Below are positions 882-50,016 of a stretch of 50,552 nt of DNA, piece by piece. The stretch is from Candidatus Caenarcanales bacterium. GTDB taxonomy: Bacteria > Cyanobacteriota > Vampirovibrionia > LMEP-6097. The stretch is taken from contig CANHDW010000002.1 of NCBI GenBank assembly GCA_947459525.1, forward strand, positions 1 through 50,552. The letters run 5' to 3'. The notes beneath the pieces were generated by a model. That model was not told the DNA's origin and searched no databases. It was given only the letters and a program-made list of their open reading frames with translations. The stretch's first letter is position 1. Each line of letters starts with the position of its first letter. The position numbers and the translations under genes were made by a program.

Positions 882-1874
882 CTAAAAACAAAAAGCCGAC
901 AGCGAAGCAATAACCACAACCGAAATAACCGTCAAGTAAATAGCAGCCTTTAAACCAAATGCCTGCTTATAAACAAAAACCGTAGTTAAATTCACAGAAG
1001 GACTAGCCGTCATAAAAGCAAGCACAGCTCCTATAGGCACTCCCATATTTAAAAATTCTTGGCTCATAGGAATATCCGCACCTGCACAAAAATAAAAAGG
1101 AAATGCGATCAGTGAGAAAATCCACGGCGATAAATATTTATTAGTTATCACAGCTCGAAAAGCAGTCAGGGATTCATAATTAAAATGAAGCAAGCTTGCA
1201 AGAGATACAGACAAAAGTATCCACGGTAAAAACTGTTTTATCGCAGCGACCAGATCCTCTCGTATATGTGCGAGGACTTCCGTCATCCCTAGTTTATGCT
1301 GATGGGACTGATCACCATCTTCAATTTCTACATTTCCATGATGATGATCAGTTTCACAACAATGTTCCTTGGACGATCCACCTGGAACTAATCTCAACGC
1401 AATAAAATCTGCAATTTTAGCTTCTCCGAAGAAAATGAAAACGTATGTAACTAAAACAGCAAAAGCTATCGCCATTAATAAACGATAGACACTAATCTCC
1501 AAGCCAAAAATTCCATAATTAAGGATTAAAGCTGGAACACTACAAGCATTTCCAGCAAGCAAAAAAGCTAAAATTATTTTCCAGTCAAGCTGCTTACGAT
1601 ACAGTCCTAGAGCAAGTGGAATCATTCCACAGGTGCAAATAGGAATTAATGCACCGAGAAAAGCTGAAACTAATATCATCAAAAAAAGACGTAATTGATA
1701 GCTTAAAAACCGTAAAATTTCCCAAGAAGAATTAGCTCCAGCTAAAGTAACTAATCCTATCTTTTCAAAATACCCATCTGGTAAATAAACTTCTATTAAA
1801 GATGAACAAATAACCGCAACAAAGAATACTGGAAGTATCTCAAGCAATATATGAATAAAATGCTCTATAAACAC
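882..1874 (-). CDS. Predicted permease (DUF318/ArsP-like family) with a His/Cys-rich loop
   Basis: Polytopic membrane protein with the motif LGALIPICTCGMIPLALGL typical of the PF03773-type permeases. The central loop is KEHCCETDHHHGNVEIEDGDQSHQHK. Confidence 0.6.
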   Translation of the reverse strand: MFIEHFIHILLEILPVFFVAVICSSLIEVYLPDGYFEKIGLVTLAGANSSWEILRFLSYQLRLFLMILVSAFLGALIPICTCGMIPLALGLYRKQLDWKIILAFLLAGNACSVPALILNYGIFGLEISVYRLLMAIAFAVLVTYVFIFFGEAKIADFIALRLVPGGSSKEHCCETDHHHGNVEIEDGDQSHQHKLGMTEVLAHIREDLVAAIKQFLPWILLSVSLASLLHFNYESLTAFRAVITNKYLSPWIFSLIAFPFYFCAGADIPMSQEFLNMGVPIGAVLAFMTASPSVNLTTVFVYKQAFGLKAAIYLTVISVVVIASLSAFCF

Positions 1875-2710: not shown

Positions 2711-3742
2711 TCAGAATAAGATTATAGCAACTAGATATAGCAAATACAAAAAGCCCAGAAAAGTAAGTGTCGCAGCATGAACACGCTTAAATACTTTCAG
2801 AGAGAGCAAAAGAATAAAGGCTGAAAGTAAAGCTAAAACAAAACAGAACATAGTATGTGAATCCAAATTCCATGGAGTCAAACTTACACCTACGGCACAA
2901 GGAATAGCCGACTGGAAGACCATAGCTCCAGTGATATTTCCCATCGCAAGGCCATCTTTACCAGAACTCGCCCAGAACCAACTATTCACTTTTTCAGGAA
3001 GCTCAGTCGCTATAGGAGCAATAATTAAACTTAAAACAAGTGGACTTACATTCATCATCACCGAGGCTTCCTCTATAGAAATAATAAATCTGTGAGCAAA
3101 ATAAACTATGCCGAGTAATGAAAGTAGTACTTGAGCGATCATCCAAAATAAGTTCGATGGCAAACGAAAGCCCGCAACCGCAACACTAGAAATATACAAG
3201 GCATCAACTCCATCAGCATCTTCCTCACTATGATGATGGTTAGCCCCCTCTCTTAAAGTAGTCACAAAATATGTCACATAAATTCCTAGAAGTATTACCG
3301 TAAAAACTATTTTAGATGTCGCATCTGGAAAAAGAGTAGCTAACATGGCTACAGATAAAGCGATTATAAAATACATCAAATCTTTACTAATATGACCATG
3401 AGCTGCTCTTAGATTTAAGTCTTGTCTTTTTTTATAATTTACTAATATTGCTAAGCCTAAAAGAGCCATAGCTAAGGTAGATAAGAGAAAAGGTGCACCA
3501 ACAATAGATCCTATAGCTATATCAGTCTTCGGATCACCATGAGCAGAGCCTGCTAAAAATATAGCGATAATAGGTAAAAGCGTTTCAGGTAAAGCTGTTC
3601 CAATAGCAGCAAGTAAACTTCCAACAACTTGTTCACCTAATTTCAGGCGAACTCCAATATTTTCTACTGCATTAGTGAACCACAAGCAGACAAATAAAAT
3701 AGCTGCAAGCAGCAGAATAATTTTTCCAATAACAATGATCAT
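2711..3742 (-). CDS. Ca2+/Na+ antiporter (CaCA / YrbG family)
   Basis: Two alpha-repeat motifs (AIGTALPETL and IATELPEKV) in a protein with about 10 TM segments. Central hydrophilic loop REGANHHHSEEDADGVD. Confidence 0.8.
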   Translation of the reverse strand: MIIVIGKIILLLAAILFVCLWFTNAVENIGVRLKLGEQVVGSLLAAIGTALPETLLPIIAIFLAGSAHGDPKTDIAIGSIVGAPFLLSTLAMALLGLAILVNYKKRQDLNLRAAHGHISKDLMYFIIALSVAMLATLFPDATSKIVFTVILLGIYVTYFVTTLREGANHHHSEEDADGVDALYISSVAVAGFRLPSNLFWMIAQVLLSLLGIVYFAHRFIISIEEASVMMNVSPLVLSLIIAPIATELPEKVNSWFWASSGKDGLAMGNITGAMVFQSAIPCAVGVSLTPWNLDSHTMFCFVLALLSAFILLLSLKVFKRVHAATLTFLGFLYLLYLVAIILF

Positions 3743-3744
3743 AT

Positions 3745-4545
3745 TTAATTACCTTTCTCAGAAACCTCTAGTAGAGACTCTTTCTCTAATTCTTCAAAGC
3801 ACTCCACAGCCACTGGAAAAACTCTTTTAACTAGCTGCATTCCAGCTTTAGCATACTGCTGTATCTCCCACTGAGCTTCTTTTGGAGCTCTAAGATTATA
3901 CCAATGCATAAAATTTCTTAAATTAACCGTAGTAATAAACTCCGTATGTGAACCCACTGGAAGCACTCCACGAGCCTGCTCCCTACATACTCCTAGCTCT
4001 ATTAATTTATTATATGCATCTATAGCCGTTTTAGCAGCGTTATCGTATATTTCACCTGCAAAAGCCTGATCTAGGCTATCACTAGCTTTTACGCTGGCCT
4101 GTTTATTCGTCTCAGCCTGCTCTCTAAATTCATCTGGTCTATAAATAGTGTTATCAAATTTCGTGTATCTCGCACTGATTTCATTGAAAACCCAGCATCT
4201 ATGCTTCATCCACTGACGAGCAATATAGATAGGACACTTAACTCTAAAAGTAATGGAATTTTGCTCGAATGGCGTCCAATGTCTATGCTTCGCTAAAAAT
4301 TTTATTAGCTTTTTATCTTTTTCCTCAAATTCCGCAGAATACTTATTATAAGAGACTCTTGCTGAGTTCACGATAGATAAATCACCACCCATCGAATCCA
4401 TAAGCTCCATATAGCCAAGCGAGCCTAAATCAGCTTTATCCTCAACAATAACAATATTATCTTTTTCAAGAGTGTCTGCCATAAAGAAACATTCTAACAA
4501 GTGATAGCCCTGCAGGAAGGTAAAAATTTTCCAAAATGATATCAA
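3745..4545 (-). CDS. thyX: FAD-dependent thymidylate synthase ThyX
   Basis: ThyX motif region WMKHRCWVFNEISARY (RHR...S.RY). The true start is probably the internal Met at 4482 (MADTLEKDN...). Confidence 0.9.
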   Translation of the reverse strand: MISFWKIFTFLQGYHLLECFFMADTLEKDNIVIVEDKADLGSLGYMELMDSMGGDLSIVNSARVSYNKYSAEFEEKDKKLIKFLAKHRHWTPFEQNSITFRVKCPIYIARQWMKHRCWVFNEISARYTKFDNTIYRPDEFREQAETNKQASVKASDSLDQAFAGEIYDNAAKTAIDAYNKLIELGVCREQARGVLPVGSHTEFITTVNLRNFMHWYNLRAPKEAQWEIQQYAKAGMQLVKRVFPVAVECFEELEKESLLEVSEKGN

Positions 4546-4623: not shown

Positions 4624-4739
4624 TCTAGCGTTCCAAGCGACTGAATCACACTCGTTCCCATCCCGAACACGACAGTTAAGGCAGTTTGCGGTGACAATAC
4701 TTGGCTGGAGACGGCCTGGAAAGATAGCTAAACGCTAGA
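4624..4739 (+). rRNA. rrf: 5S ribosomal RNA, not linked to a 23S gene
   Basis: 116 nt. Helix I pairs TCTAGCGTT (5' end) with AACGCTAGA (3' end). Contains the universal 5S core GTTCCCATCCCGAACACGACAGTTAAG. Confidence 0.9.
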
Positions 4740-4752
4740 CTCTATTTTAATG

Positions 4753-4836: not shown

Positions 4837-4875
4837 GGGATTGTTCACGATCTTTTATTTCTGCGTTTTCGTCCC
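4837..4875 (+). repeat. Solo head fragment of the dispersed repeat family
   Basis: GGGATTGTTCACGATCTTTTATTTCTGCGTTTTCGTCCC. Compare GGGACTGCCCACAATCTTCAATTTCTGCGTTTTCGTCGTCC at 20023. Confidence 0.6.
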
Positions 4876-9075: not shown

Positions 9076-10404
9076 TTAAATCTTGACCGCAGCCTTAGCT
9101 TCAGAATTAATAGAATTATCAGAAACCCTTTCAATAATCGCCCCAAGCGATCTAAATTTATCTTCTAACTCTTCATAACCCCTATCTAGGTGTATCAGCC
9201 CTCTAACTTCACTAGTACCTTCAGCAGCAAGAGCTGCGACAACCAATGCAGCAGTAGCCCTCAGGTCACGACCCTCTACTTGAGTAGCTTTTAATTTATC
9301 TACACCAGTAATTACCGCTACTTCACCATTTACATCAGCCCTAGAACCCATCTTTTGTAATTCTTCAATGTGTTGAAATCTTGAATTATAAATATTCTCA
9401 ACTACAGTACTAGTACCATCACATAATGCAAGCAAAACTGAGAAAATTGGCTGAATATCAGTAGAGAAACCTGGATACCACATAGTTTTCACATCCGTAG
9501 CTTTCAAGATTCTATTTTCAGCAGATACCTCTATATCCACCAAGCCCTCTATCTCTGATTTAAAAATAGTTATATCAACTCCAACATCCTCAAGCTTACT
9601 TAAGAGTGCTTGTAAATCTTCCTCAACCACAGAATTAGCTCTAACTCGCCCCCTAGTCATCGCTCCTGCAATTAAGTAGGTCGCAGCCTCTATTCGGTCT
9701 GGTAAGCACCTGAAATCTGAGCCATGTAATTCATCTGGAGCGACCCCCTGTATATGAATATTACTAGTACCAGCCCCCGCGATCTTACAACCAAGTGAAT
9801 TTAAAAATTTAGCTAGATCCACTATCTCTGGATCCCTCGCAGCATTTTCTATAATAGTCTCACCCTCTGCCATAACTGCAGCTATCATAATATTTTCTGT
9901 AGCTCCGTTACTTGGCAGATCTAAATAAATTTTAGTACCAACAAGCTTATCAGCACTAGCAAAGACATAACCATGCTCCTCTGTAATCTTCACTCCTAAG
10001 GCTTTTAATCCTTTAAGGTGTAAGTCAACTTTTCTTGCACCTAGGTCACAACCACCTGGGAGAGCGACTTGGGCATTTTTAAACCTTGCAACCAAAGCCC
10101 CTAAACAAACAAAACTTGCTCTTAATTTACGCGCCAATTCAATAGGCACCATATCACTAGACAAATTAGTACTATCTATCTCTAACACTTTATCTTTAAA
10201 ACTAATCTCCGCTCCGAGTAGTGCTAGTATATCTATCATCGCGTAGACATCTGATAATTCTGGGACGTTCGATAATCTAACTTTTGATTTCGGTAAAATT
10301 AAAGCAGCGGCCATTTGTTTCAGTACTGCATTTTTAGCACCTGAAACTAGAATCTCGCCATGGAGAGCATTTGAACCTTTTATTTTTAATTTTTCTTGAG
10401 GCAA
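9076..10404 (-). CDS. murA: UDP-N-acetylglucosamine 1-carboxyvinyltransferase
   Basis: 442 aa with the active-site region LPGGCDLGARKVDLH. Confidence 0.95.
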   Translation of the reverse strand: MPQEKLKIKGSNALHGEILVSGAKNAVLKQMAAALILPKSKVRLSNVPELSDVYAMIDILALLGAEISFKDKVLEIDSTNLSSDMVPIELARKLRASFVCLGALVARFKNAQVALPGGCDLGARKVDLHLKGLKALGVKITEEHGYVFASADKLVGTKIYLDLPSNGATENIMIAAVMAEGETIIENAARDPEIVDLAKFLNSLGCKIAGAGTSNIHIQGVAPDELHGSDFRCLPDRIEAATYLIAGAMTRGRVRANSVVEEDLQALLSKLEDVGVDITIFKSEIEGLVDIEVSAENRILKATDVKTMWYPGFSTDIQPIFSVLLALCDGTSTVVENIYNSRFQHIEELQKMGSRADVNGEVAVITGVDKLKATQVEGRDLRATAALVVAALAAEGTSEVRGLIHLDRGYEELEDKFRSLGAIIERVSDNSINSEAKAAVKI

Positions 10405-12663: not shown

Positions 12664-12867
12664 TTACTTTTGAGTTGTAGTTGCAGCAGGAGCTTTAGCA
12701 GCTGGAGCAGCTGTGTTAGCTTTAGCAGCAGGAGCTTTAGCTTCTGTTTTTTGTTCAGCTTTAGCTGATTTTTGCTCAGTTTTAGCTGGTTTTTGCTCAG
12801 CTAAATTAGCGTTAGCAGATAGAGTAGCTACAACTAGTAAAGCGAATAATGCAGACATTTTTTTCAT
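12664..12867 (-). CDS. Small secreted low-complexity (Ala/Lys/Gln-rich) protein
   Basis: Signal peptide MKKMSALFALLVVATLSANA followed by AEQK/AKAPAAK-type repeats. Confidence 0.55.
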   Translation of the reverse strand: MKKMSALFALLVVATLSANANLAEQKPAKTEQKSAKAEQKTEAKAPAAKANTAAPAAKAPAATTTQK

Positions 12868-19915: not shown

Positions 19916-19936
19916 TACCAAAGGTTTATTAAAAAA

Positions 19937-20013
19937 CGACAGAGACGAAGATCTGTAAAAGCGCCAGCTTTTACAATGAAAAAGGCAACCCTCAAGCTCA
20001 AGTCCCTTCGTCG
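19937..20013 (-). repeat. Decayed copy of the tRNA-Asp-derived tRNA-like hairpin unit (unit 1)
   Basis: CGACAGAGACGAAGATCTGTAAAAGCGCCAGCTTTTACAATGAAAAAGGCAACCCTCAAGCTCAAGTCCCTTCGTCG aligns along its whole length with unit 2. Confidence 0.7.
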
Positions 20014-20020
20014 ATGCTAA

Positions 20021-20144
20021 TAGGGACTGCCCACAATCTTCAATTTCTGCGTTTTCGTCGTCCTCATGACCTCATGTACCTTCAGTACACTGCGGTCATT
20101 CGTCCTCCTCAGCCTTGAACTTGTGCGTTTGTGAACAGTCCCTA
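20021..20144 (+). mobile_element. Full-length MITE-like copy of the dispersed repeat (variant arms)
   Basis: Terminal inverted arms TAGGGACTGCCCACAA and TTGTGAACAGTCCCTA flank the conserved core. It sits between two paralogous units, one of which provides an empty site. Confidence 0.85.
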
Positions 20145-20160
20145 ATTTAATTTTAAAAAA

Positions 20161-20241
20161 TGGCGGAGACGAAGATCTGTAAAAGCGCCAGCTTTTACAA
20201 TGAAAAAGTAAACCCTTAGGGTTCAAGTCCCTTCGTCTCCG
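20161..20241 (-). ncRNA. tRNA-Asp-derived tRNA-like hairpin unit (unit 2); function unknown
   Basis: It starts with TGGCGGAGACGAAG, identical to 20262-20275 under the tRNA 3' end. It ends with GGGTTCAAGTCCCTTCGTCTCCG, an inverted copy of the tRNA T-arm plus acceptor. On the minus strand it ends ...CTTCGTCTCC-G-CCA followed by a T-run. Confidence 0.45.
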
Positions 20242-20261
20242 TTATTTTAATTTATTAAAAA

Positions 20262-20338
20262 TGGCGGAGACGAAGGGACTTGAACCCTCGACCCCCTGCG
20301 TGACAGACAGGTGCTCTAACCAACTGAGCTACGCCTCC
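20262..20338 (-). tRNA. tRNA-Asp (anticodon GUC), CCA encoded
   Basis: Cloverleaf folded by hand. Acceptor GGAGGCG/CGTCTCC, D-arm GCTC-AGTTGGTTA-GAGC, anticodon arm CCTGT-CTGTCAC-GCAGG, T-arm GAGGG-TTCAAGT-CCCTT, discriminator G, then CCA. Confidence 0.92.
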
Positions 20339-31818: not shown

Positions 31819-32190
31819 ATGTTAAAGTACGATACAGAGAATCTTCCACGCATTACCTTTAAAGGAAAAAGGCTTACCGAAAAGCAAATCGCAGTCCTAG
31901 AATTTCTAGCACAGGGGCAGACGAATACAGAAATAGCCGAAAATCTTTTCCTCTCTGTAAGAACTGTAGAATCACACATCTCTAGAATTAGAAGTATTAT
32001 AAGCGAACATATGCCCCAGTCACAGAGAATCAGTGATAGACAGCTCGTTTTATTCGCAAAAGATCTAATCGATGGCTTTAAAATTTTCGACATACTGAAA
32101 AGCGGCATGAATGAAGGCTTTGAGCTGTCAGAATTTAAAACTTATCAAAAAACAGTAAGCCTGAATAATGATAGATATTATATTCAATGA
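31819..32190 (+). CDS. LuxR/FixJ-type HTH transcriptional regulator (stand-alone; HTH is N-terminal)
   Basis: LTEKQIAVLEFLAQGQTNTEIAENLFLSVRTVESHISRIRSII. Confidence 0.75.
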   Translation: MLKYDTENLPRITFKGKRLTEKQIAVLEFLAQGQTNTEIAENLFLSVRTVESHISRIRSIISEHMPQSQRISDRQLVLFAKDLIDGFKIFDILKSGMNEGFELSEFKTYQKTVSLNNDRYYIQ

Positions 32191-32358
32191 GGCGGGCGAA
32201 AACGCAGAAATTGGAGTTGTGCAGCGGTCTCTTTTGGGCGTGTAGCCAAACGAACAAGTTCAAGGTCTGAGGAGGATGAATGACCGCAATGTATCAAGCA
32301 TACATGAGGATCATGAGGACAACGAAAACGCAGAAATTGGAGTTTCGCTACACGCCCC
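32187..32358 (-). mobile_element. Full-length repeat copy (32236-32357) plus an adjacent partial head (32187-32232)
   Basis: Arms GGGCGTGTAGCCAAAC and GTTTCGCTACACGCCC flank a reverse-complemented core. The element fills the whole spacer between the luxR-type stop and the argS stop. Confidence 0.9.
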
Positions 32359-32360
32359 TG

Positions 32361-34256
32361 TTACATTTTCTCTGGTGCAGAGATCGCAAGTATACTAAGA
32401 GCATTTTTTATAACTATCTTAGAAGCTGCCACCAGAGATAACCTAGCCTTCATAACCTCTTCGTTTTCACCTATAATACGATTTTCATTATAGAACTGAT
32501 GAAATAAGCTAGCTAAATTCTTTAAGTAGACTGAGATTTTATAAGGTGCCCTGATATCAGCAGCATCAATAACAAGCTTAGGTAATTCAATCAATTCTAA
32601 AACTAAGCTTCTGATAGTTTTCAACTGCTCTTCACTATGATATTCATCAGAAAAGAGTTTCTTGAAATTTGCAGAAAATGTTTTAAACTCTTCATTTAAT
32701 AAACGTTCTAGCTCATCTACTTCAAAAATAGCAGCTTCTTCCGTATTATCAACTATATTGATACGAGGGCTTACTAAATTACGAAATATACTTGCCGAGC
32801 GGGCATGTGCATACTGTATGTAGTAAACTGGATTATCTTTATCATGTTTTTGCGCTAAAGCTAAATCAAAAACCATGCGATTATTGGCTTGGCTATCCAC
32901 CAGAAAGAATCTCAGGGCATCTTTACCGACTTCAGCTAAAAGCTCATCAACGTTAACTATAGTGCCTTTGCGCTTAGACATTTTTTTCTCAACGCCATCT
33001 TCTTTAACGGAAACCAATTGAATAAAAATCAACTCTAGCTGATCAGGATTATAGCCAATAGCTTGAATCGCCCCACGAATGCCAAGCTCTTGACCATGAT
33101 GATCGCTGCCCCAAACATTAATTAACTTATCAAAGCCTCTGTCAAATTTATCTTTATGATAGGCGATATCACCAGCTAAATAAGTGAACATGCCTTGAGA
33201 TTTTCTAAGGACTCTATCTCGCTCATCACCAAAGGATTTCGCTCTAAACCATAGAGCCGAGTCTTCTTCATACACAGCAGAGACCTCATGGGCGTGGAGC
33301 GGAACTCCAATTTCTGCGTTTTCACCCGCCTCATGATGCTCCGTCACATCTTCTTGCTTTACTTTTACTGCTTTCAGTGTTTCACAGATTAACTCAATTT
33401 TATTTTTATCATTAATTTTCACTTGATGTAGATTCTCGTTCTCCGAGTACCACGTATCGAAATGAACTTCTATGTCAGCTAAAACTTTCTTCTGTAAATC
33501 AAGAAAAAGACTTTTCGCTAATTTACCAGCTATTTCTTTTGCTTGATCACCAGCAAGGGAAGCCGCATCCAAATAGCCTTTTAGCTTAGCTTTATAAATC
33601 TCCGGCTTTAAAACATCTAACATGGAATCCAGTGGATAAGCATCCACTGGATAATTTTCCTTAGTGATGTGACCCTCTTGAATTTGAATTGCAGCTTGAG
33701 CAGAGAGTGAAAGCTTTTCTATCTGCACACCAGCGTCATTAATATAAAATTCACTAGATACATCGTAACCAGCCCAGTCAAGTAATCTTGCAAGAGAATT
33801 ACCCAGAACTGCTTGCCTGCCATGACCTAAATGTAGATTACCAGTAGGATTCGCTGAAACATACTCTATAAGAAAGCGATGCGGCTCCATATCAGCCCGA
33901 GCTTCTTTAGATAAACGCCCATAATTATCTTTCTCTTGATGAATCTCTACTAGAGCAGATTCTAAAAAATCCCAATTCAAACGAATATTAATAAACCCTG
34001 GACCAGCGATAGATATATCACCAATGGCAACTACATCCAAATGTTTTACTATACTTTGAGCTATCTTTACTGGTGCTAGTTTCGCCTCACGAGACAGCTT
34101 TAGGGCTATACTTACGGCGATATCGCCATGATCAGGGTTTTTACATCTCTCCACATCTATATAATCAGAAAAACTTTTCAGCTCACCTAAGTCAGATGCC
34201 GCAATAGCTTTATTTATAGCTATTTGGAATAAATTACGAATCTTGCTGCTTAACAT
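32361..34256 (-). CDS. argS: Arginine--tRNA ligase
   Basis: HIGH-type motif NPTGNLHLGHGR, MSKRKG (KMSKS) and a C-terminal DALR domain. At 631 aa it is longer than typical and carries an internal repeat-derived segment. Confidence 0.95.
   Translation of the reverse strand: MLSSKIRNLFQIAINKAIAASDLGELKSFSDYIDVERCKNPDHGDIAVSIALKLSREAKLAPVKIAQSIVKHLDVVAIGDISIAGPGFINIRLNWDFLESALVEIHQEKDNYGRLSKEARADMEPHRFLIEYVSANPTGNLHLGHGRQAVLGNSLARLLDWAGYDVSSEFYINDAGVQIEKLSLSAQAAIQIQEGHITKENYPVDAYPLDSMLDVLKPEIYKAKLKGYLDAASLAGDQAKEIAGKLAKSLFLDLQKKVLADIEVHFDTWYSENENLHQVKINDKNKIELICETLKAVKVKQEDVTEHHEAGENAEIGVPLHAHEVSAVYEEDSALWFRAKSFGDERDRVLRKSQGMFTYLAGDIAYHKDKFDRGFDKLINVWGSDHHGQELGIRGAIQAIGYNPDQLELIFIQLVSVKEDGVEKKMSKRKGTIVNVDELLAEVGKDALRFFLVDSQANNRMVFDLALAQKHDKDNPVYYIQYAHARSASIFRNLVSPRINIVDNTEEAAIFEVDELERLLNEEFKTFSANFKKLFSDEYHSEEQLKTIRSLVLELIELPKLVIDAADIRAPYKISVYLKNLASLFHQFYNENRIIGENEEVMKARLSLVAASKIVIKNALSILAISAPEKM
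33291..33341 (+). repeat. In-frame intragenic copy of the repeat head inside argS
   Basis: GGCGTGGAGCGGAACTCCAATTTCTGCGTTTTCACCCGCCTCATGATGCTC versus 47872-47922 GGCGTGTAGCGAAACTCCAATTTCTGCGTTTTCGTCGTCCTCATGATCCTC (44 of 51 nt identical by hand alignment). Confidence 0.8.
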
Positions 34257-38138: not shown

Positions 38139-39341
38139 TTAGAGTTTTTTTATTAATGCAAAGATATCTCTGCTGCTTTCAGGTCTTGCAAAGCGATACA
38201 AATTTTTCTTCATCGCCGATATTTTCTCAGGGTTCTTCGCTAAGTCGAAAAGCAAATCAGCAATCTCCTTTTGCGGAGAGTATCGCACAATTCCATTTTC
38301 TGCATTTTCACCACCAGAAAAGGCATCTTGGCGAATCATGAAACCACAACCAGCCTTAACTAAAGCCTCTGCATTTTTAGTCTGATGATCATGAGCAGCC
38401 CAAGGTAAAGGAATTAATATTGGTACTATCAGCGACACTGCCATTTCAGCACAAGTCATAGCACCAGCCCTGCAAATAGCTATATCAACGGTTTTAGAAA
38501 TATTTGCCATCTCATGGGTATAACTTAAAACCTTATAGTTAGAGTATTTATTCGGATCAGCATTTAAATATTTACTTACATGCTCATCAAAAAGCTTAGA
38601 ACCTGTAATGTGAATAATAGATATTCTTTTACCTTCAAGAGCTAATCTCTGATTAAAATCCTCAAAATCTTTAAGTAAAATGCCTATACTATCATTAACG
38701 AACTGGGAACCCTGACTACCACCAGTTACCAAAACCCTCAAATGATTTTCATCACGACTAGCAGCAGCCCCATCAGCGGCTTCCCTATAAATATTTATAA
38801 AATCTTGTGAGACTGGATTACCCGTGTAACGATATTTATCATTAAAATTTACATTTATCGGAAAGCCTAAGCTCACACGACTCGCAAATATTTTAAATAA
38901 TTTATTTACCAATCCAAAATTACTATCAAGATTATGAATTAGGAACTTTGTTTTCGTTATCACACAGGCAAGAAACACTGGCGCTGCCACGTAACCACCC
39001 GTACCCATCACTACGTCAATTTTATTTTCTCTCAGGTAGTTCACAGAGCATTTATAAGCTTTAAAAAAAATACCAAACCATTCTAAGTTTTCTTTAAAAG
39101 AATTATTTCGAGATGGCAGCTTTGGAGCATTAATAGGAAGAAACTGGATATATTCTTTTCTTAGACACAGTTCCTGCTCCAGTTTTCCTTCACCACCAAT
39201 ATAGTAAAGAAAGTTTTTTTCAGCCCCAGCTCGATTACTTTCATCTTCAAATAGCTCAGCTACAGCAAGACATGGATAAATATGTCCTCCAGTGCCTCCT
39301 CCCGTAAACGCAACTCGCACAAGAATATCCTCTATCAACAA
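38139..39341 (-). CDS. murG: UDP-GlcNAc--undecaprenyl-PP-MurNAc-pentapeptide GlcNAc transferase
   Basis: N-terminal FTGGGTGGHIYP and C-terminal CRAGAMTCAEM...AHDHQTKNA. Confidence 0.92.
   Translation of the reverse strand: MLIEDILVRVAFTGGGTGGHIYPCLAVAELFEDESNRAGAEKNFLYYIGGEGKLEQELCLRKEYIQFLPINAPKLPSRNNSFKENLEWFGIFFKAYKCSVNYLRENKIDVVMGTGGYVAAPVFLACVITKTKFLIHNLDSNFGLVNKLFKIFASRVSLGFPINVNFNDKYRYTGNPVSQDFINIYREAADGAAASRDENHLRVLVTGGSQGSQFVNDSIGILLKDFEDFNQRLALEGKRISIIHITGSKLFDEHVSKYLNADPNKYSNYKVLSYTHEMANISKTVDIAICRAGAMTCAEMAVSLIVPILIPLPWAAHDHQTKNAEALVKAGCGFMIRQDAFSGGENAENGIVRYSPQKEIADLLFDLAKNPEKISAMKKNLYRFARPESSRDIFALIKKL
38285..38318 (+). repeat. In-frame intragenic copy of the repeat head inside murG
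   Basis: GCACAATTCCATTTTCTGCATTTTCACCACCAG. Its reverse complement aligns with 32191-32231 (GGCGGGCGAAAACGCAGAAATTGGAGTTGTGCAGCGGTCTC). It encodes GGENAENGIV. Confidence 0.65.
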
Positions 39342-47871: not shown

Positions 47872-48110
47872 GGCGTGTAGCGAAACTCCAATTTCTGCGT
47901 TTTCGTCGTCCTCATGATCCTCATGTAAGCTTGATGAATCAAGCTTGTATTTCCGCTTGCTCGCATATGAGACTTGTCTCGCATGCTCGGCATCGCCGGA
48001 AATTACCCGCAGTACACTGCGGTCATTCGTCCTCCTCGGCCTTGAACTTGTTCGTTTGGCTACACGCCCCTAAGAGACCGCTGAACAACTCCATCTTCTG
48101 CGTTCATGAC
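47872..48110 (+). mobile_element. Longest full-length repeat copy (47872-48068) plus an adjacent partial head (48069-48110)
   Basis: Arms GGCGTGTAGCGAAAC and GTTTGGCTACACGCC, the conserved core, and an 84-nt extra central segment. It fills the spacer between two convergent genes. Confidence 0.9.
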
Positions 48111-48928
48111 TTAATCGTAAAGTCACCGCTCCAGCATATTCTATAGACTAGATTAGTAGCAAGCTCACTTGCTATATCCATGATATTTTCACGAACATCT
48201 TGACTCAGTAAGGCTTCCAGCCCTAAATTACCGAGAGAATCACGATCTTCTTGAACATAATCTATAAATTCCTCTCTCTTCTCTTCACTTAAATTTAAAG
48301 CAGCAGCATCTTTAATATAAATAGTCGTCAGCTGATGCTCTGCACTTAATTTCTTTAGATAATTAAAAATCTGAATATTGATCTCTACTAAATGCCCAAG
48401 CTGATAATTCAACAAGGCATTCATGCCGATTAAGGTTTGTACTGGATTAAGAATAGTTAAAACTAGCGTTTTTTCACTATCGATTTCCTCTATACTCAGA
48501 CTCTGTTCAGGTAGCTGGTTTAAATTCGCTTGATAATATAACTGTTCTCTTTCTATGACCTCTAAACGATTTTCAACAGTTAGCCTATATTCTTCAACGA
48601 AATCCAGAAGCTCATCTGGTTCGTCTAAATTATCAATAATAAAAGCTTTTAATTCAGAGCCTTTGAGTTTAAGCTTCTTAAATTCAGCAATAACTTTCTC
48701 TACATCTAGAATAGATGGGGCTAACTGAATTACCTTAAAGAAACTAGAAAAATAATCAGATACCTTATCGGTAATGATTTTACCGAAAGGTTTACAGGAT
48801 TCTTTTATCTCCGTGCAGGTCTTTAAATATTGAGCGTTTAAGTCCTCGACTAAAGCTGACTTTTCTTCTTCTAAAAGAGATTTTTGGAATATTTCGATTA
48901 AGGTTTCCTCATCCATGTCTTTACTCAC
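48104..48928 (-). CDS. Hypothetical acidic protein
   Basis: 274-aa ORF, Glu/Leu-rich, with no recognised motif. Its stop codon lies in the repeat tail. Confidence 0.5.
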   Translation of the reverse strand: MSKDMDEETLIEIFQKSLLEEEKSALVEDLNAQYLKTCTEIKESCKPFGKIITDKVSDYFSSFFKVIQLAPSILDVEKVIAEFKKLKLKGSELKAFIIDNLDEPDELLDFVEEYRLTVENRLEVIEREQLYYQANLNQLPEQSLSIEEIDSEKTLVLTILNPVQTLIGMNALLNYQLGHLVEINIQIFNYLKKLSAEHQLTTIYIKDAAALNLSEEKREEFIDYVQEDRDSLGNLGLEALLSQDVRENIMDIASELATNLVYRICWSGDFTIKS

Positions 48929-49014: not shown

Positions 49015-49944
49015 TTAAGAAATTATTTTATGAACTCTAAAGTAATTGGCTCCAGCTTCATAACAGAGTTCATTATATCTTTGCGTTAATAAATCCAAAT
49101 CCATATTACGCTCTGCAAGAGTGCTATTACTTTCACACTGCTCACGAACTCCATTTTCTGCGTTTAAAGCAGCGCCTAAAAAAGACTTACGACTAGCTCC
49201 TATAAGTATTTCAGGATTAAACTCCCGAGACCGCCACATGATTTTATTTTCTGCATTTTTAAGTTTCGGCAAAATCTCAATTAAATCATAGCTGTGATTA
49301 TAATTTTTACCAAAACCTAATCCTGGATCAAGAATTACCCTAGCTAAGTCAATACCATAATTTTCACATAAATCTAAAAATCGAGAAAAAAAATCTATTA
49401 AATGCATTTCAAAAGCGGCTTTCTCATTTTTAGCCTGAGGATAATCACTTAAATAGTAATCTTCTGGAACCTCTAAAGCCTTTAAACTTGGTGGCACACC
49501 ACCTTTCGAGTGCATCGCTATAAGTTTAATCTTCTGTTCTTTATCATACTTAGAAATAAGCTCAAGCTTACGCTCATCAGTAAAGCCTTCTACATCATTT
49601 AAAAAAGATATTTTTTCCTTAAAGAAAGGCTCTAATAGTAAGGCTTCCATGATTTCATATTTGCGAGTATCTATAGATAAAGGGAAATCATATTTACTAC
49701 AAAAAATTTTTAAAAAATTTTCCAAACGCTGATATTCTTCAATCGCTGATACAGGCTCCGCATCAGGGCGAGTAGATTCTGCCCCTACATCTAAAGCGTA
49801 AGCTCCACTTTCCATAAGCTTCTCTGCTTTATCTAAAAGCCAGCCAAGATCACAAAAATCCTTAGAACCATCTGAAAATGAGTCTGGAGTTATATTTAAT
49901 ATCGCTAAATACTTAGCACTTTTCATATTTCCAAATCTAGGCAC
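49015..49944 (-). CDS. folP: Dihydropteroate synthase
   Basis: ILNITPDSFSDGS, DVGAESTRP, DPGLGFGK, GASRKSF and RVHKI. The likely true start is the ATG at 49926 (MKSAKYLAILN...). Confidence 0.92.
   Translation of the reverse strand: MPRFGNMKSAKYLAILNITPDSFSDGSKDFCDLGWLLDKAEKLMESGAYALDVGAESTRPDAEPVSAIEEYQRLENFLKIFCSKYDFPLSIDTRKYEIMEALLLEPFFKEKISFLNDVEGFTDERKLELISKYDKEQKIKLIAMHSKGGVPPSLKALEVPEDYYLSDYPQAKNEKAAFEMHLIDFFSRFLDLCENYGIDLARVILDPGLGFGKNYNHSYDLIEILPKLKNAENKIMWRSREFNPEILIGASRKSFLGAALNAENGVREQCESNSTLAERNMDLDLLTQRYNELCYEAGANYFRVHKIIS
49145..49165 (+). repeat. Short in-frame copy of the repeat head inside folP
   Basis: CGAACTCCATTTTCTGCGTTT versus the consensus CGAAACTCCAATTTCTGCGTTT. It encodes NAENGV in the same frame as the argS and murG copies. 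Confidence 0.45.
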
Positions 49945-50016
49945 GGTTACCGAACTCCGATTTCTGCGTTAGTGCCATCTCTGGGGACTGCTTACAATCT
50001 TCAATTTCTGCGTTTT
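49945..50016 (+). repeat. Two tandem head fragments of the repeat between folP and the next gene
   Basis: GGTTACCGAACTCCGATTTCTGCGTT (49945-49970) and GGGGACTGCTTACAATCTTCAATTTCTGCGTTTTTT (49983-50016). Confidence 0.7.

Follow-up and report, generated by a model that had tools for sequence, protein, structure and literature searches.

Among the repeats of bacterial genomes that invade protein-coding genes are the Rickettsia palindromic elements (RPEs; Ogata et al. 2000), palindromic sequences of ~105–150 bp that carry no transposase gene and of which nearly half of the first-reported copies lie in frame in unrelated genes (PMC10969869; PMC3184786). In the RPE literature, such insertions are predicted to be compatible with the conformation and function of the protein. 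Until now, the large-scale invasion of housekeeping genes, in frame, by a palindromic repeat has been regarded as peculiar to Rickettsia, and a recent review called a similar process in other prokaryotes only "conceivable" (PMC10969869). Other mobile repeats that invite comparison are bcr1 of the Bacillus cereus group, a non-autonomous, mobile element of ~155 bp with 5-bp direct repeats (PMC3184786, citing Okstad 2004 and Klevan 2007), the IMU element, a Tn3-type miniature that makes 5-bp duplications (PMC3184786), and the repetitive extragenic palindromes (REPs) and REPINs, which are mobilised by RAYT transposases (PMC3116915, PMC3733652). REPs measure 20–40 bp and are extragenic by definition, those treated in PMC3184786 being ~35 bp long, and a GTAG/CGTC end tag sorts most of them into two super-families (PMC3733652). 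This report concerns a 50,552-nt stretch of DNA, called the window below, from Candidatus Caenarcanales bacterium (Vampirovibrionia; contig CANHDW010000002.1), and a segment of its murG gene that is the decayed, in-frame remnant of a lineage-specific MITE, a miniature transposable element with inverted repeats. In full-text literature searches, such elements were found described for neither Melainabacteria nor Vampirovibrionia.

The insertion in murG

The start of murG is placed at the codon at 39320 (MRVAF), seven codons after the listed TTG start, and the exact 393-aa product is recorded in ENA metagenome assembly ERZ27263728 k141_2002310. On the coding (minus) strand, positions 38276–38315 read GGTGGTGAAAATGCAGAAAATGGAATTGTGCGATACTCTC, which with the preceding TCT (38316–38318) gives SGGENAENGIVRYS in the murG frame. 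The first-pass annotation had taken 38285–38318 to be a further intragenic copy of a repeat at 32191–32231. The segment was correctly recognised, but the last 9 nt of its arm had been clipped, the full extent being 38276–38318. A by-eye alignment of the two with one gap has 30 of 41 positions identical, and the best local alignment of the 45-nt unit at 32187–32231 against murG has 24 identities in 28 positions (score 20). The similarity is significant against a shuffled background: 2000 dinucleotide-preserving shuffles of murG, compared on both strands, gave scores of 10.3 ± 1.3, the highest being 16, so that not one attained the observed 20. Likewise, the 21-mer core GAAAACGCAGAAATTGGAGTT, with up to 3 mismatches, has 8 matches in the window and none in 100 shuffles. 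A profile was built from 62 distinct near-full copies of the element and run with nhmmer over the window and fetched loci (861 kb); it finds the murG site at 38312–38276 (model positions 85–121) with E = 0.096, or ~0.006 when rescaled to the window alone, and the orthologous site in the relative L116 with E = 0.0036. By coordinate arithmetic, codons start at model positions congruent to 1 modulo 3 in both murG and argS, which bears out the proposal that the two copies share orientation and reading frame.

The segment had further been described as a candidate lineage-specific insertion in the normally short linker after the HQTKNAEALVKAG block of MurG, and an alignment of 32 orthologues from a graded identity series agrees on both counts. 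After HDHQTKNAEALVKAGxxFMIRQD, the MurG proteins that are 85–100% identical to that of the window, and only these, have 10–20 extra residues. The nearest outgroup, P0037 (62% identity), is without them (RQDQTNN-QKRQAEIFDL), as are all more distant MurG proteins, the typical ones being even shorter there. The segment reads GENAENGIVRY in the window, P0002 and P0005, GENAENGIPRY in P0009, GENAENVVEHS in P0012, and TVQSTENGAVDG, AQGVENGAVDC and similar in P0015–P0023. Two members of the clade, P0032 and P0035, have lost it through a larger deletion that removed ancestral codons as well, the one in P0032 (L114) spanning 54 nt and taking the codons for QQREI. At the DNA level, the site in L116, which encodes P0012, reads GGCGAAAACGCAGAAAATGTAGTTGAGCATTCCTCT and is nearer the family consensus than the copy in the window. 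The orthologous sites form a decay series from GGCGAAAACGCAGAAAATGTAGTT... in L116 to GGTGAAAATGCAGAAAATGGAATT... in the window, while L115 (P0018) has a longer, more diverged version that still starts with GATGAGG. The murG insertion is real, is older than the divergence of the clade, and is decaying.

An AlphaFold2 model of the window's MurG has a mean pLDDT (predicted local distance difference test) of 89.7, and the sole segment below 50 is residues 336–346, GGENAENGIVR. These lie between the final C-terminal-domain strand, assigned by DSSP to residues 327–328 only and so too short to enter the tool's strand list, and helix 349–362, so the insertion is predicted to sit in a disordered surface loop.

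A second remnant (site 1) lies further upstream in the same gene. It retains GGGGCTGCTGC, the leftover of a 5' arm and the exact complement of the arm GCAGCAGCCCC found in relatives. At the same codon position, after ...NPVSQDFINIYR, the relatives have the 3' unit of the element, that is its partial head plus arm (GGACGACGAAAACGCAGAAATTGAAGTTTGGCAGCAGCCCC; E of 1e-6 to 1e-8), and MurG P0035 has a unit together with a whole element in frame, DGENDENAEIGVWEATDGAAAKRASSRLRRTNDRSVLGVHEDHEDDENAEIEVWQQP (the whole element being ...DGAAAKRASSRLRRTNDRSVLGVHEDHEDDENAEIEVWQQP). Read across P0035, P0023, P0012 and the window, site 1 shows short units arising by deletion from longer copies.

It was also observed that MurG scores 206 bits against an NCBIfam curated cut-off of 250, and that the hidden Markov model (HMM) match of argS is broken into three stretches. 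Split or weakened HMM matches of this kind, with MurG falling below its TIGRFAM cut-off, are a practical concern in these metagenome-assembled genomes (MAGs), and the insertions may contribute to the degraded automatic annotation of murG and argS.

The repeat family and its mobility

The profile search gave 345 matches in the 861 kb, 252 of them at E < 0.001. A degenerate 21-mer scan of one genome per species found more than 112 loci among the matches listed, nearly all of them in five MAGs, whose labels are Vampirovibrionia, Candidatus Melainabacteria or Cyanobacteria, with Proteobacteria and just "bacterium" each occurring once; three single matches outside these five MAGs are at chance level. 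The family is present in at least five species-level genomes of Vampirovibrionia (Melainabacteria).

The element is an imperfect hairpin of ~121 nt with a terminal helix of 11–16 bp, a helix CAAGTTC/GAAATTG and a central stem-loop. Its 5' arm of 12–13 nt belongs to one of several classes, including GGGCGTGTAGCC, GGGACTGCTCAC, GGCACTGTTGCC and GAGACCGCTGCAC (in the orientation of 32236–32357), and is followed by AAACGAACAAGTTCAAGG, CTGAGGAGGACGAATGACCGCAGTGTAC, a 5-nt loop, GTACATGAGGATCATGAGGACGACGAAAACGCAGAAATTGGAGTT and a 3' arm complementary to the 5' arm. The terminal inverted repeats (columns 1–11 with 112–122, and 13–16 with 107–110) are paired in nearly all of 40 aligned copies. In the RNAalifold consensus of these copies, 18 of the 37 pairs show compensatory changes; in the outer helix most pairs reach 10–19 double changes, and the central stem covaries as well (six changes of UA to CG and seven of CG to UA). 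The single copy at 32236–32357 folds at -40.6 kcal/mol (z = -5.2). Rfam gave no family at the gathering threshold nor at E up to 10. The only commonly open frame, sense frame 0, specifies a peptide of 40 aa, far too short for a transposase.

Every full copy also has the sequence GAGGAGGA with an ATG 5 nt later (model positions ~33–47, e.g., 32268–32283); the frame of this ATG (MTAVYWGYMRIMRTTKTQKLEF...) differs from the one used within genes, and a stop lies upstream of the ATG. Gene callers turn intergenic copies into hypothetical proteins of 33–71 aa, and a search of a set of 5.8 billion proteins with a 41-mer peptide of the element returned 50 small spurious open reading frames (ORFs) on element copies and no large hosts.

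Of 64 full copies, 20 have an exact 5-bp direct repeat right at the element boundaries; if the scoring tolerates small offsets, 21 copies attain 5 bp, against 1.2 expected from mismatched flanks. The duplicated targets (e.g., TTGAA, TAGAA, ATTTA, ATAAT, AAAAT and CTAAT) are AT-rich. A search of other genomes with the joined flanks of each copy revealed a filled and an empty version of one site, in L072 and L098, which differ by 121 + 5 nt, with AAAAT duplicated and one of its copies since mutated. Element and duplication together make 126 nt, or 42 codons. In being shorter than 500 bp, lacking a transposase ORF, and having terminal inverted repeats, 5-bp duplications and many dispersed copies, the family has the characters of a MITE, and from the target-site duplications it was probably mobilised by a DDE-type transposase acting in trans.

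Full copies commonly stand next to older ones; in at least 10 of 62 left flanks (judged by eye), the 3' arm of an older copy immediately precedes the full one. Head-to-tail arrays of two or three full elements occur at L105 1742–2118 and L036 2515–2761, the 3' arm of one element being partly replaced by the flank of the next, and these arrays are consistent with insertion beside existing arms or with local duplication. Since many matches lie at contig ends, the element probably breaks assemblies. One contig catalogued as viral, L118 (IMGVR_UViG_3300042866_002883), has copies at 3613–3668, 3941–3977 and 10184–10279 and encodes a type I restriction R subunit, a YgjP-like peptidase, two SNF2 helicases and AAA/AbiEii-like ATPases. 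Carriage by phage was considered for it and set aside because the contig has no phage hallmark; it is probably a misfiled fragment of a host defence island.

About half of the copies at E < 0.1 (137 of 292) are intragenic, defined as lying in a stop-free frame of at least 600 nt that continues for at least 60 nt on both sides. All but three of these (134 of 137) are in the sense orientation and in a single frame (…HEDHEDDENAEIGV…), and none is antisense. This census by DNA profile takes the place of the regular-expression or tBLASTN count of host proteins that the first-pass annotation had envisaged; the interpretation offered there stands, but its scale was underestimated, as there is a second remnant in murG, there are others in folP and a permease gene, and the repeat is a MITE with hundreds of copies. 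The hosts examined, 59 non-redundant ORFs matching 105 Pfam families, include ATP synthase alpha/beta, carbamoyl-phosphate synthase, glutamate synthase, TrmD, Sua5, ArgJ, UvrD, SNF2 helicases and ABC transporters.

The sense frame is open in 51 of the 62 full copies, and the other two sense frames contain stops. Of the antisense frames, one is stop-free in 42 of the 62, its peptide being hydrophobic and rich in Pro and Cys, and the idea that stop codons exclude antisense copies is therefore only partly true. Between co-directional genes, 23 intergenic copies are sense and 12 antisense, a distribution that leaves transcription-coupled insertion unsupported as the source of the one-orientation rule. 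Because intergenic copies occur in both orientations, the best explanation for the strict rule of frame and orientation within genes is selection acting once the element is in place, rather than a bias in how it inserts. Selection on the peptide itself was not detected, the synonymous to nonsynonymous changes being 96:278 in intragenic and 118:285 in intergenic copies (p = 0.26).

Origin of the short units and alternative explanations

Comparisons between orthologous loci bear on how the short 3' units arise. At 32187–32360, the orthologue L052 is ~43 nt longer with the same ATGAGG start, and L004 has a full copy of the same arm class. The unit itself (32187–32231, plus strand, ATGAGGCGGGCGAAAACGCAGAAATTGGAGTTGTGCAGCGGTCTC) starts at the stop codon of a LuxR-type ORF (31819–32190), the TGA of its ATGAGG being the stop. 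This unit is thus a deletion derivative formed between ATGAGG repeats. At two loci (L072/L098 and L037/L003), a composite of unit plus full copy is matched by a single unit bearing the arm of the full copy, the outcome of recombination between the two heads. Another origin of such composites, homologous recombination of a circular copy into a resident unit, was considered and rejected, since the 3' arm of the unit is not complementary to the next 5' arm (at 32187–32247, GTGCAGCGGTCTC adjoins the non-complementary GGGCGTGTAGCC). A series of internal deletions runs down to mini-hairpins of ~45 nt, arm-AAACGCAGAAATTGGAGTT-arm, with breakpoints at AAACG and TGAGGA. The argS unit is a 51-nt (17-codon) insertion relative to the empty argS of L004, where the flanks are 93% identical, and CATGAGG adjoins it on both sides, the right-hand one reading CATGAAG in the empty site of L004.

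The explanation favoured here, with a probability of roughly 0.88, is that the murG segment is the decayed 3' part of a ~121-nt MITE that was fixed in frame in a surface loop in the ancestor of the clade. The element, a non-coding hairpin, inserts in AT-rich 5-bp targets and duplicates them, presumably through the cut-and-paste action of a transposase provided in trans. With 126 nt making 42 codons, and with a stop-free, hydrophilic and acidic frame (GTVAERTSSRLRRTNDRSVLGVHEDHEDDENAEIGVRQQS), an insertion would not truncate the protein. In-frame sense insertions would survive in permissive loops, all other intragenic insertions being purged by selection. The copies would then shrink by in-frame deletion between their own direct repeats (TGAGGA/ATGAGG, AAACG, or the duplicated heads of neighbours), often leaving the 3' unit alone, and afterwards drift. 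The murG copy probably began as a longer one, and its remnant, which is likely to be selectively neutral, would now just lengthen the disordered loop that leads from the last beta-strand of the C-terminal domain to helix 349–362.

Several points weigh against this explanation. The murG copy of the window alone reaches just E = 0.096 in the 861-kb profile search, and no clean empty site for its insertion was found among close relatives; the murG copy may have been trimmed from a full one or have been short from the start. No autonomous partner or transposase ORF was found within or between element halves in the 861 kb; in the sole candidate, L047, the element halves enclose ORFs that look ordinary by eye. 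Assemblies of MAGs tend to lose insertion-sequence copies. The antisense frame that is open in 42 of 62 copies is never found within genes, and selection against the antisense peptide has to be assumed. The CATGAGG and CATGA(A)G motifs around the argS unit hint at a microhomology route for some short units; either direct, microhomology-assisted insertion or full insertion followed by deletion would fit the structure seen there. Lastly, the outer arms differ at 5–6 of 12 positions between subfamilies yet stay complementary, a pattern not expected if a sequence-specific transposase bound those bases. Arms that vary but remain complementary around a near-invariant interior would fit a folded single-stranded intermediate (DNA or RNA) moved by a structure-reading enzyme, with 5'-truncated or microhomology-joined insertions, as would the frequent position of copies beside older 3' arms, the 3'-only unit as the commonest form and the microhomology at argS. 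Such a route is judged rather improbable; if true, it would be a way of spreading not described before for MITEs of bacteria, and one at work on the scale of the RPEs in free-living cyanobacterial relatives.

The short 3' units could also have been inserted as such, by a process that truncates or depends on microhomology, such as abortive or one-ended transposition, template switching or illegitimate recombination with another copy. The clean 51-nt presence/absence difference at argS fits this idea, the bounding CATGAGG being element-internal sequence at the 5' edge of the unit, and so do the numerical excess of 3' units over full copies in the window (~9 to 3) and the many units that start at or near ATGAGG (model positions 77–80); some units keep 5–7 nt of the 5' terminus (GGGACTG-ACGAAAAC...) and could therefore be mobilisable mini-MITEs. 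However, units are seen to derive by deletion from longer copies in three orthologous comparisons and at murG site 1, and their 5' boundaries are spread over model positions 55 to 91 with no single point. The argS structure would look the same if a full element had inserted at CATGA and a deletion had then joined the left duplication to the internal CATGAGG, and direct insertion of short units is regarded as unlikely. Chance resemblance, in which an AT-rich, purine-rich coding stretch happens to look like the repeat and the MurG linker is simply variable, might draw on the marginal profile score of the window's copy and on the varying length of MurG linkers, but it has practically no standing against the failure of any of the 2000 shuffles to reach the observed score, the site in L116 that is nearer the consensus, the match of frame and orientation to the rest of the family, and the presence of a second remnant in the same gene.

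Trimming and decay of an inserted MITE must also be set against two functional interpretations. One holds that the shared peptide (…DENAEIGV…) is a selected module, such as a tag, a binding motif or a flexible acidic linker, used in many proteins. The use of one frame in nearly all intragenic copies, the retention of the murG insertion across proteins that are 85–100% identical, and the near-invariance of the E, N and A of the ENA motif in an alignment of the 59 host ORFs speak for it, but the ratio of synonymous to nonsynonymous changes is alike in intragenic and intergenic copies, the murG sequence drifts freely and was deleted in two members of the clade, the segment is predicted to be disordered, and about half of all copies are intergenic; a selected peptide is accordingly held to be very unlikely. 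The other views the elements as structured RNAs (regulatory hairpins or small RNAs), with the murG copy acting at the level of the mRNA. Strong covariation in the arms and central stem, a stable fold, and the Shine-Dalgarno-like GAGGAGGA followed by ATG would suit such a role, and yet the murG remnant is without the 5' arm and forms no family hairpin (z = -2.3, with an unrelated structure), Rfam gives no match, target-site duplications show that the copies arrived by transposition, and compensatory changes have also been reported for the mobile bcr1 repeats (PMC3184786). A role as RNA has, if anything, slightly less to recommend it than the selected peptide.

Copies in the window and comparison with described elements

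The window holds 13 copies or remnants of the element, which are listed in Table 1 together with murG.

Table 1. Coordinates of murG and of the copies and remnants of the palindromic element, in positions of the window.
Feature	Position	Strand	Evidence and remarks
murG (host gene)	ORF 38139–39341	-	TIGR01133 murG match, E = 5.8e-61
murG coding region	38139–39320	-	393 aa, GTG start (MRVAF...), stop included
In-frame 3' remnant in murG ("head" GAAAAYGCAGAAAWTGGA + 3' arm GTGCGATACTCTC)	38276–38318	-	Codons S335–S348, SGGENAENGIVRYS
Second murG remnant (site 1)	38757–38783	-	Residues 180–188, EAADGAAAS; GGAAGCCGCTGATGGGGCTGCTGCTAGT
In-frame 3' unit in argS (..EHHEAGENAEIGVPLHAH..)	33290–33341	-	Profile E = 7e-9
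3' unit ("partial head plus arm"), reference copy of the first-pass annotation	32187–32231	+	E = 5e-7, model 77–121
Full-length element (arms GGGCGTGTAGC / GCTACACGCCC)	32236–32357	+	E = 4e-32
Full-length element (arms GGGACTGTTCAC / GTGGGCAGTCCC), just downstream of tRNA-Asp	20023–20142	-	E = 1e-33
Long variant, ~200 nt, with ~70-nt nested palindromic module in central loop	47872–48068	-	Halves E = 5e-16 and 4e-15
3' unit adjoining the stop codon of ORF 48104–48928	48074–48105	-	Model 90–121, E = 0.31 alone
In-frame remnant in folP (..LNAENGVREQC..)	49137–49165	-	E = 0.033; family frame by coordinate arithmetic
Two neighbouring 3' units at or upstream of the folP start	49940–49971, 49984–50016	-	E = 0.014 and 0.012
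Mini copy between 5S rRNA gene and 3' end of pnp	4837–4874	-	E = 0.33 alone; D1/D2 repeats; GGGACGAAAACGCAGAAATAAAAGATCGTGAACAATCCC
Decayed in-frame permease remnant (..HGNVEIEDGDQS..), weakest part	1304–1339	-	E = 1.1 alone; D1/D2 member

The ORF at 48104–48928 ends in a TGA stop that is directly followed by the ACGCAG of the adjoining unit, and an inverted-repeat pair (I2; 32201–32265 and 48040–48104), 92% complementary, spans most of this unit. The permease remnant is 82% identical to the reference copy and is in the family frame by coordinate arithmetic; its host gene has a sub-threshold match to the SO_0444 Cu/Zn efflux family. The nested module of the long variant (47936–48003, minus strand) consists of ATTTCCGGCG...GCGGAAAT plus AAGCTTGATTCATCAAGCTT, and ~15 other copies have a 60–80-nt insert at the same place in the central loop; the module may itself be another small mobile element, one with the loop as its target.

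The full-length insertion at 20023–20142 is also present in L013 and L029. It sits between two hairpin-forming units of ~90 nt (19929–20018 and 20153–20250) that follow tRNA-Asp (20262–20338, minus strand), an arrangement shared by L013 and L029. In each unit, a truncated copy of the tRNA-Asp 3' end is joined by the T-arm/acceptor of that tRNA in inverted form; the units may represent a tRNA-derived repeat or what is left of an integration site. The 5S rRNA gene next to the mini copy (4624–4740, plus strand) stands without an adjacent 23S rRNA gene, its neighbours being a minus-strand ORF (3745–4545) and, on the other side, the mini copy and the 3' end of pnp. Unrelated to the element are overlapping GCAGCAGGAGCTTTAGC-type repeats at 12683–12746 (family D5), which would be alanine-rich if translated.

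In relation to described systems, the new family resembles REPs and REPINs in being hairpin-forming and highly repeated, with variation that preserves structure, but differs from them in lacking the GTAG/CGTC end tag (judged by eye), in its greater length and in its invasion of ORFs. REPs and REPINs are not known to make a target-site duplication, and identity with them is excluded by the 5-bp duplications together with the intragenic copies. With Tn3-derived miniatures such as IMU, the family shares the 5-bp duplication of AT-rich targets and ends that start G-rich (GGG/GGC/GAG). The ends of the Tn3 family are 38 bp long (GGGG...TAAG), whereas the inverted repeat here is 11–16 bp plus a stretch of imperfect pairing, its ends vary between copies, and the material searched showed no transposase of the Tn3 family. 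In a weak test made by eye against the Tn3 consensus, repeats of ~38 bp were not matched, the two ends of the element having only ~16 nt in common with each other and the right end being without the motif; the left end (…AAACGAACAAGTTCAAGG) resembles Tn3-type ends in no more than a suggestive way. The 5-bp direct repeats and the compensatory changes that preserve a long stem recall bcr1 (PMC3184786); however, bcr1 is described as a transcribed genomic repeat, is not listed inside protein genes (PMC3184786) and belongs to Firmicutes, the two being set side by side by description.

The closest parallel is with the RPEs. Both are small, palindromic, multicopy repeats without a transposase gene that lie in frame in unrelated housekeeping genes and specify a conserved peptide, and here one frame is used in 134 of 137 intragenic copies and the murG insert lies in a predicted disordered loop. 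The hosts are Vampirovibrionia and not Rickettsiales, no Rickettsia genome is among the 21-mer matches listed, and the comparison is one of description and not of sequence, so that the relation is put forward as analogy rather than membership. The new family adds clear 5-bp duplications and filled and empty sites, arms in at least four covarying classes around a near-constant interior, and an element that with its duplication makes 42 codons. By this analogy, the phenomenon known from Rickettsia would have arisen independently in Vampirovibrionia, where its mechanism has left clearer marks (duplications of 5 bp, sites both filled and empty, and a frame-preserving length). With a visible path of decay from 42-codon inserts to remnants of 12–15 codons, it could serve as a second natural system, beside the RPEs, for the study of how selfish DNA lengthens protein loops.

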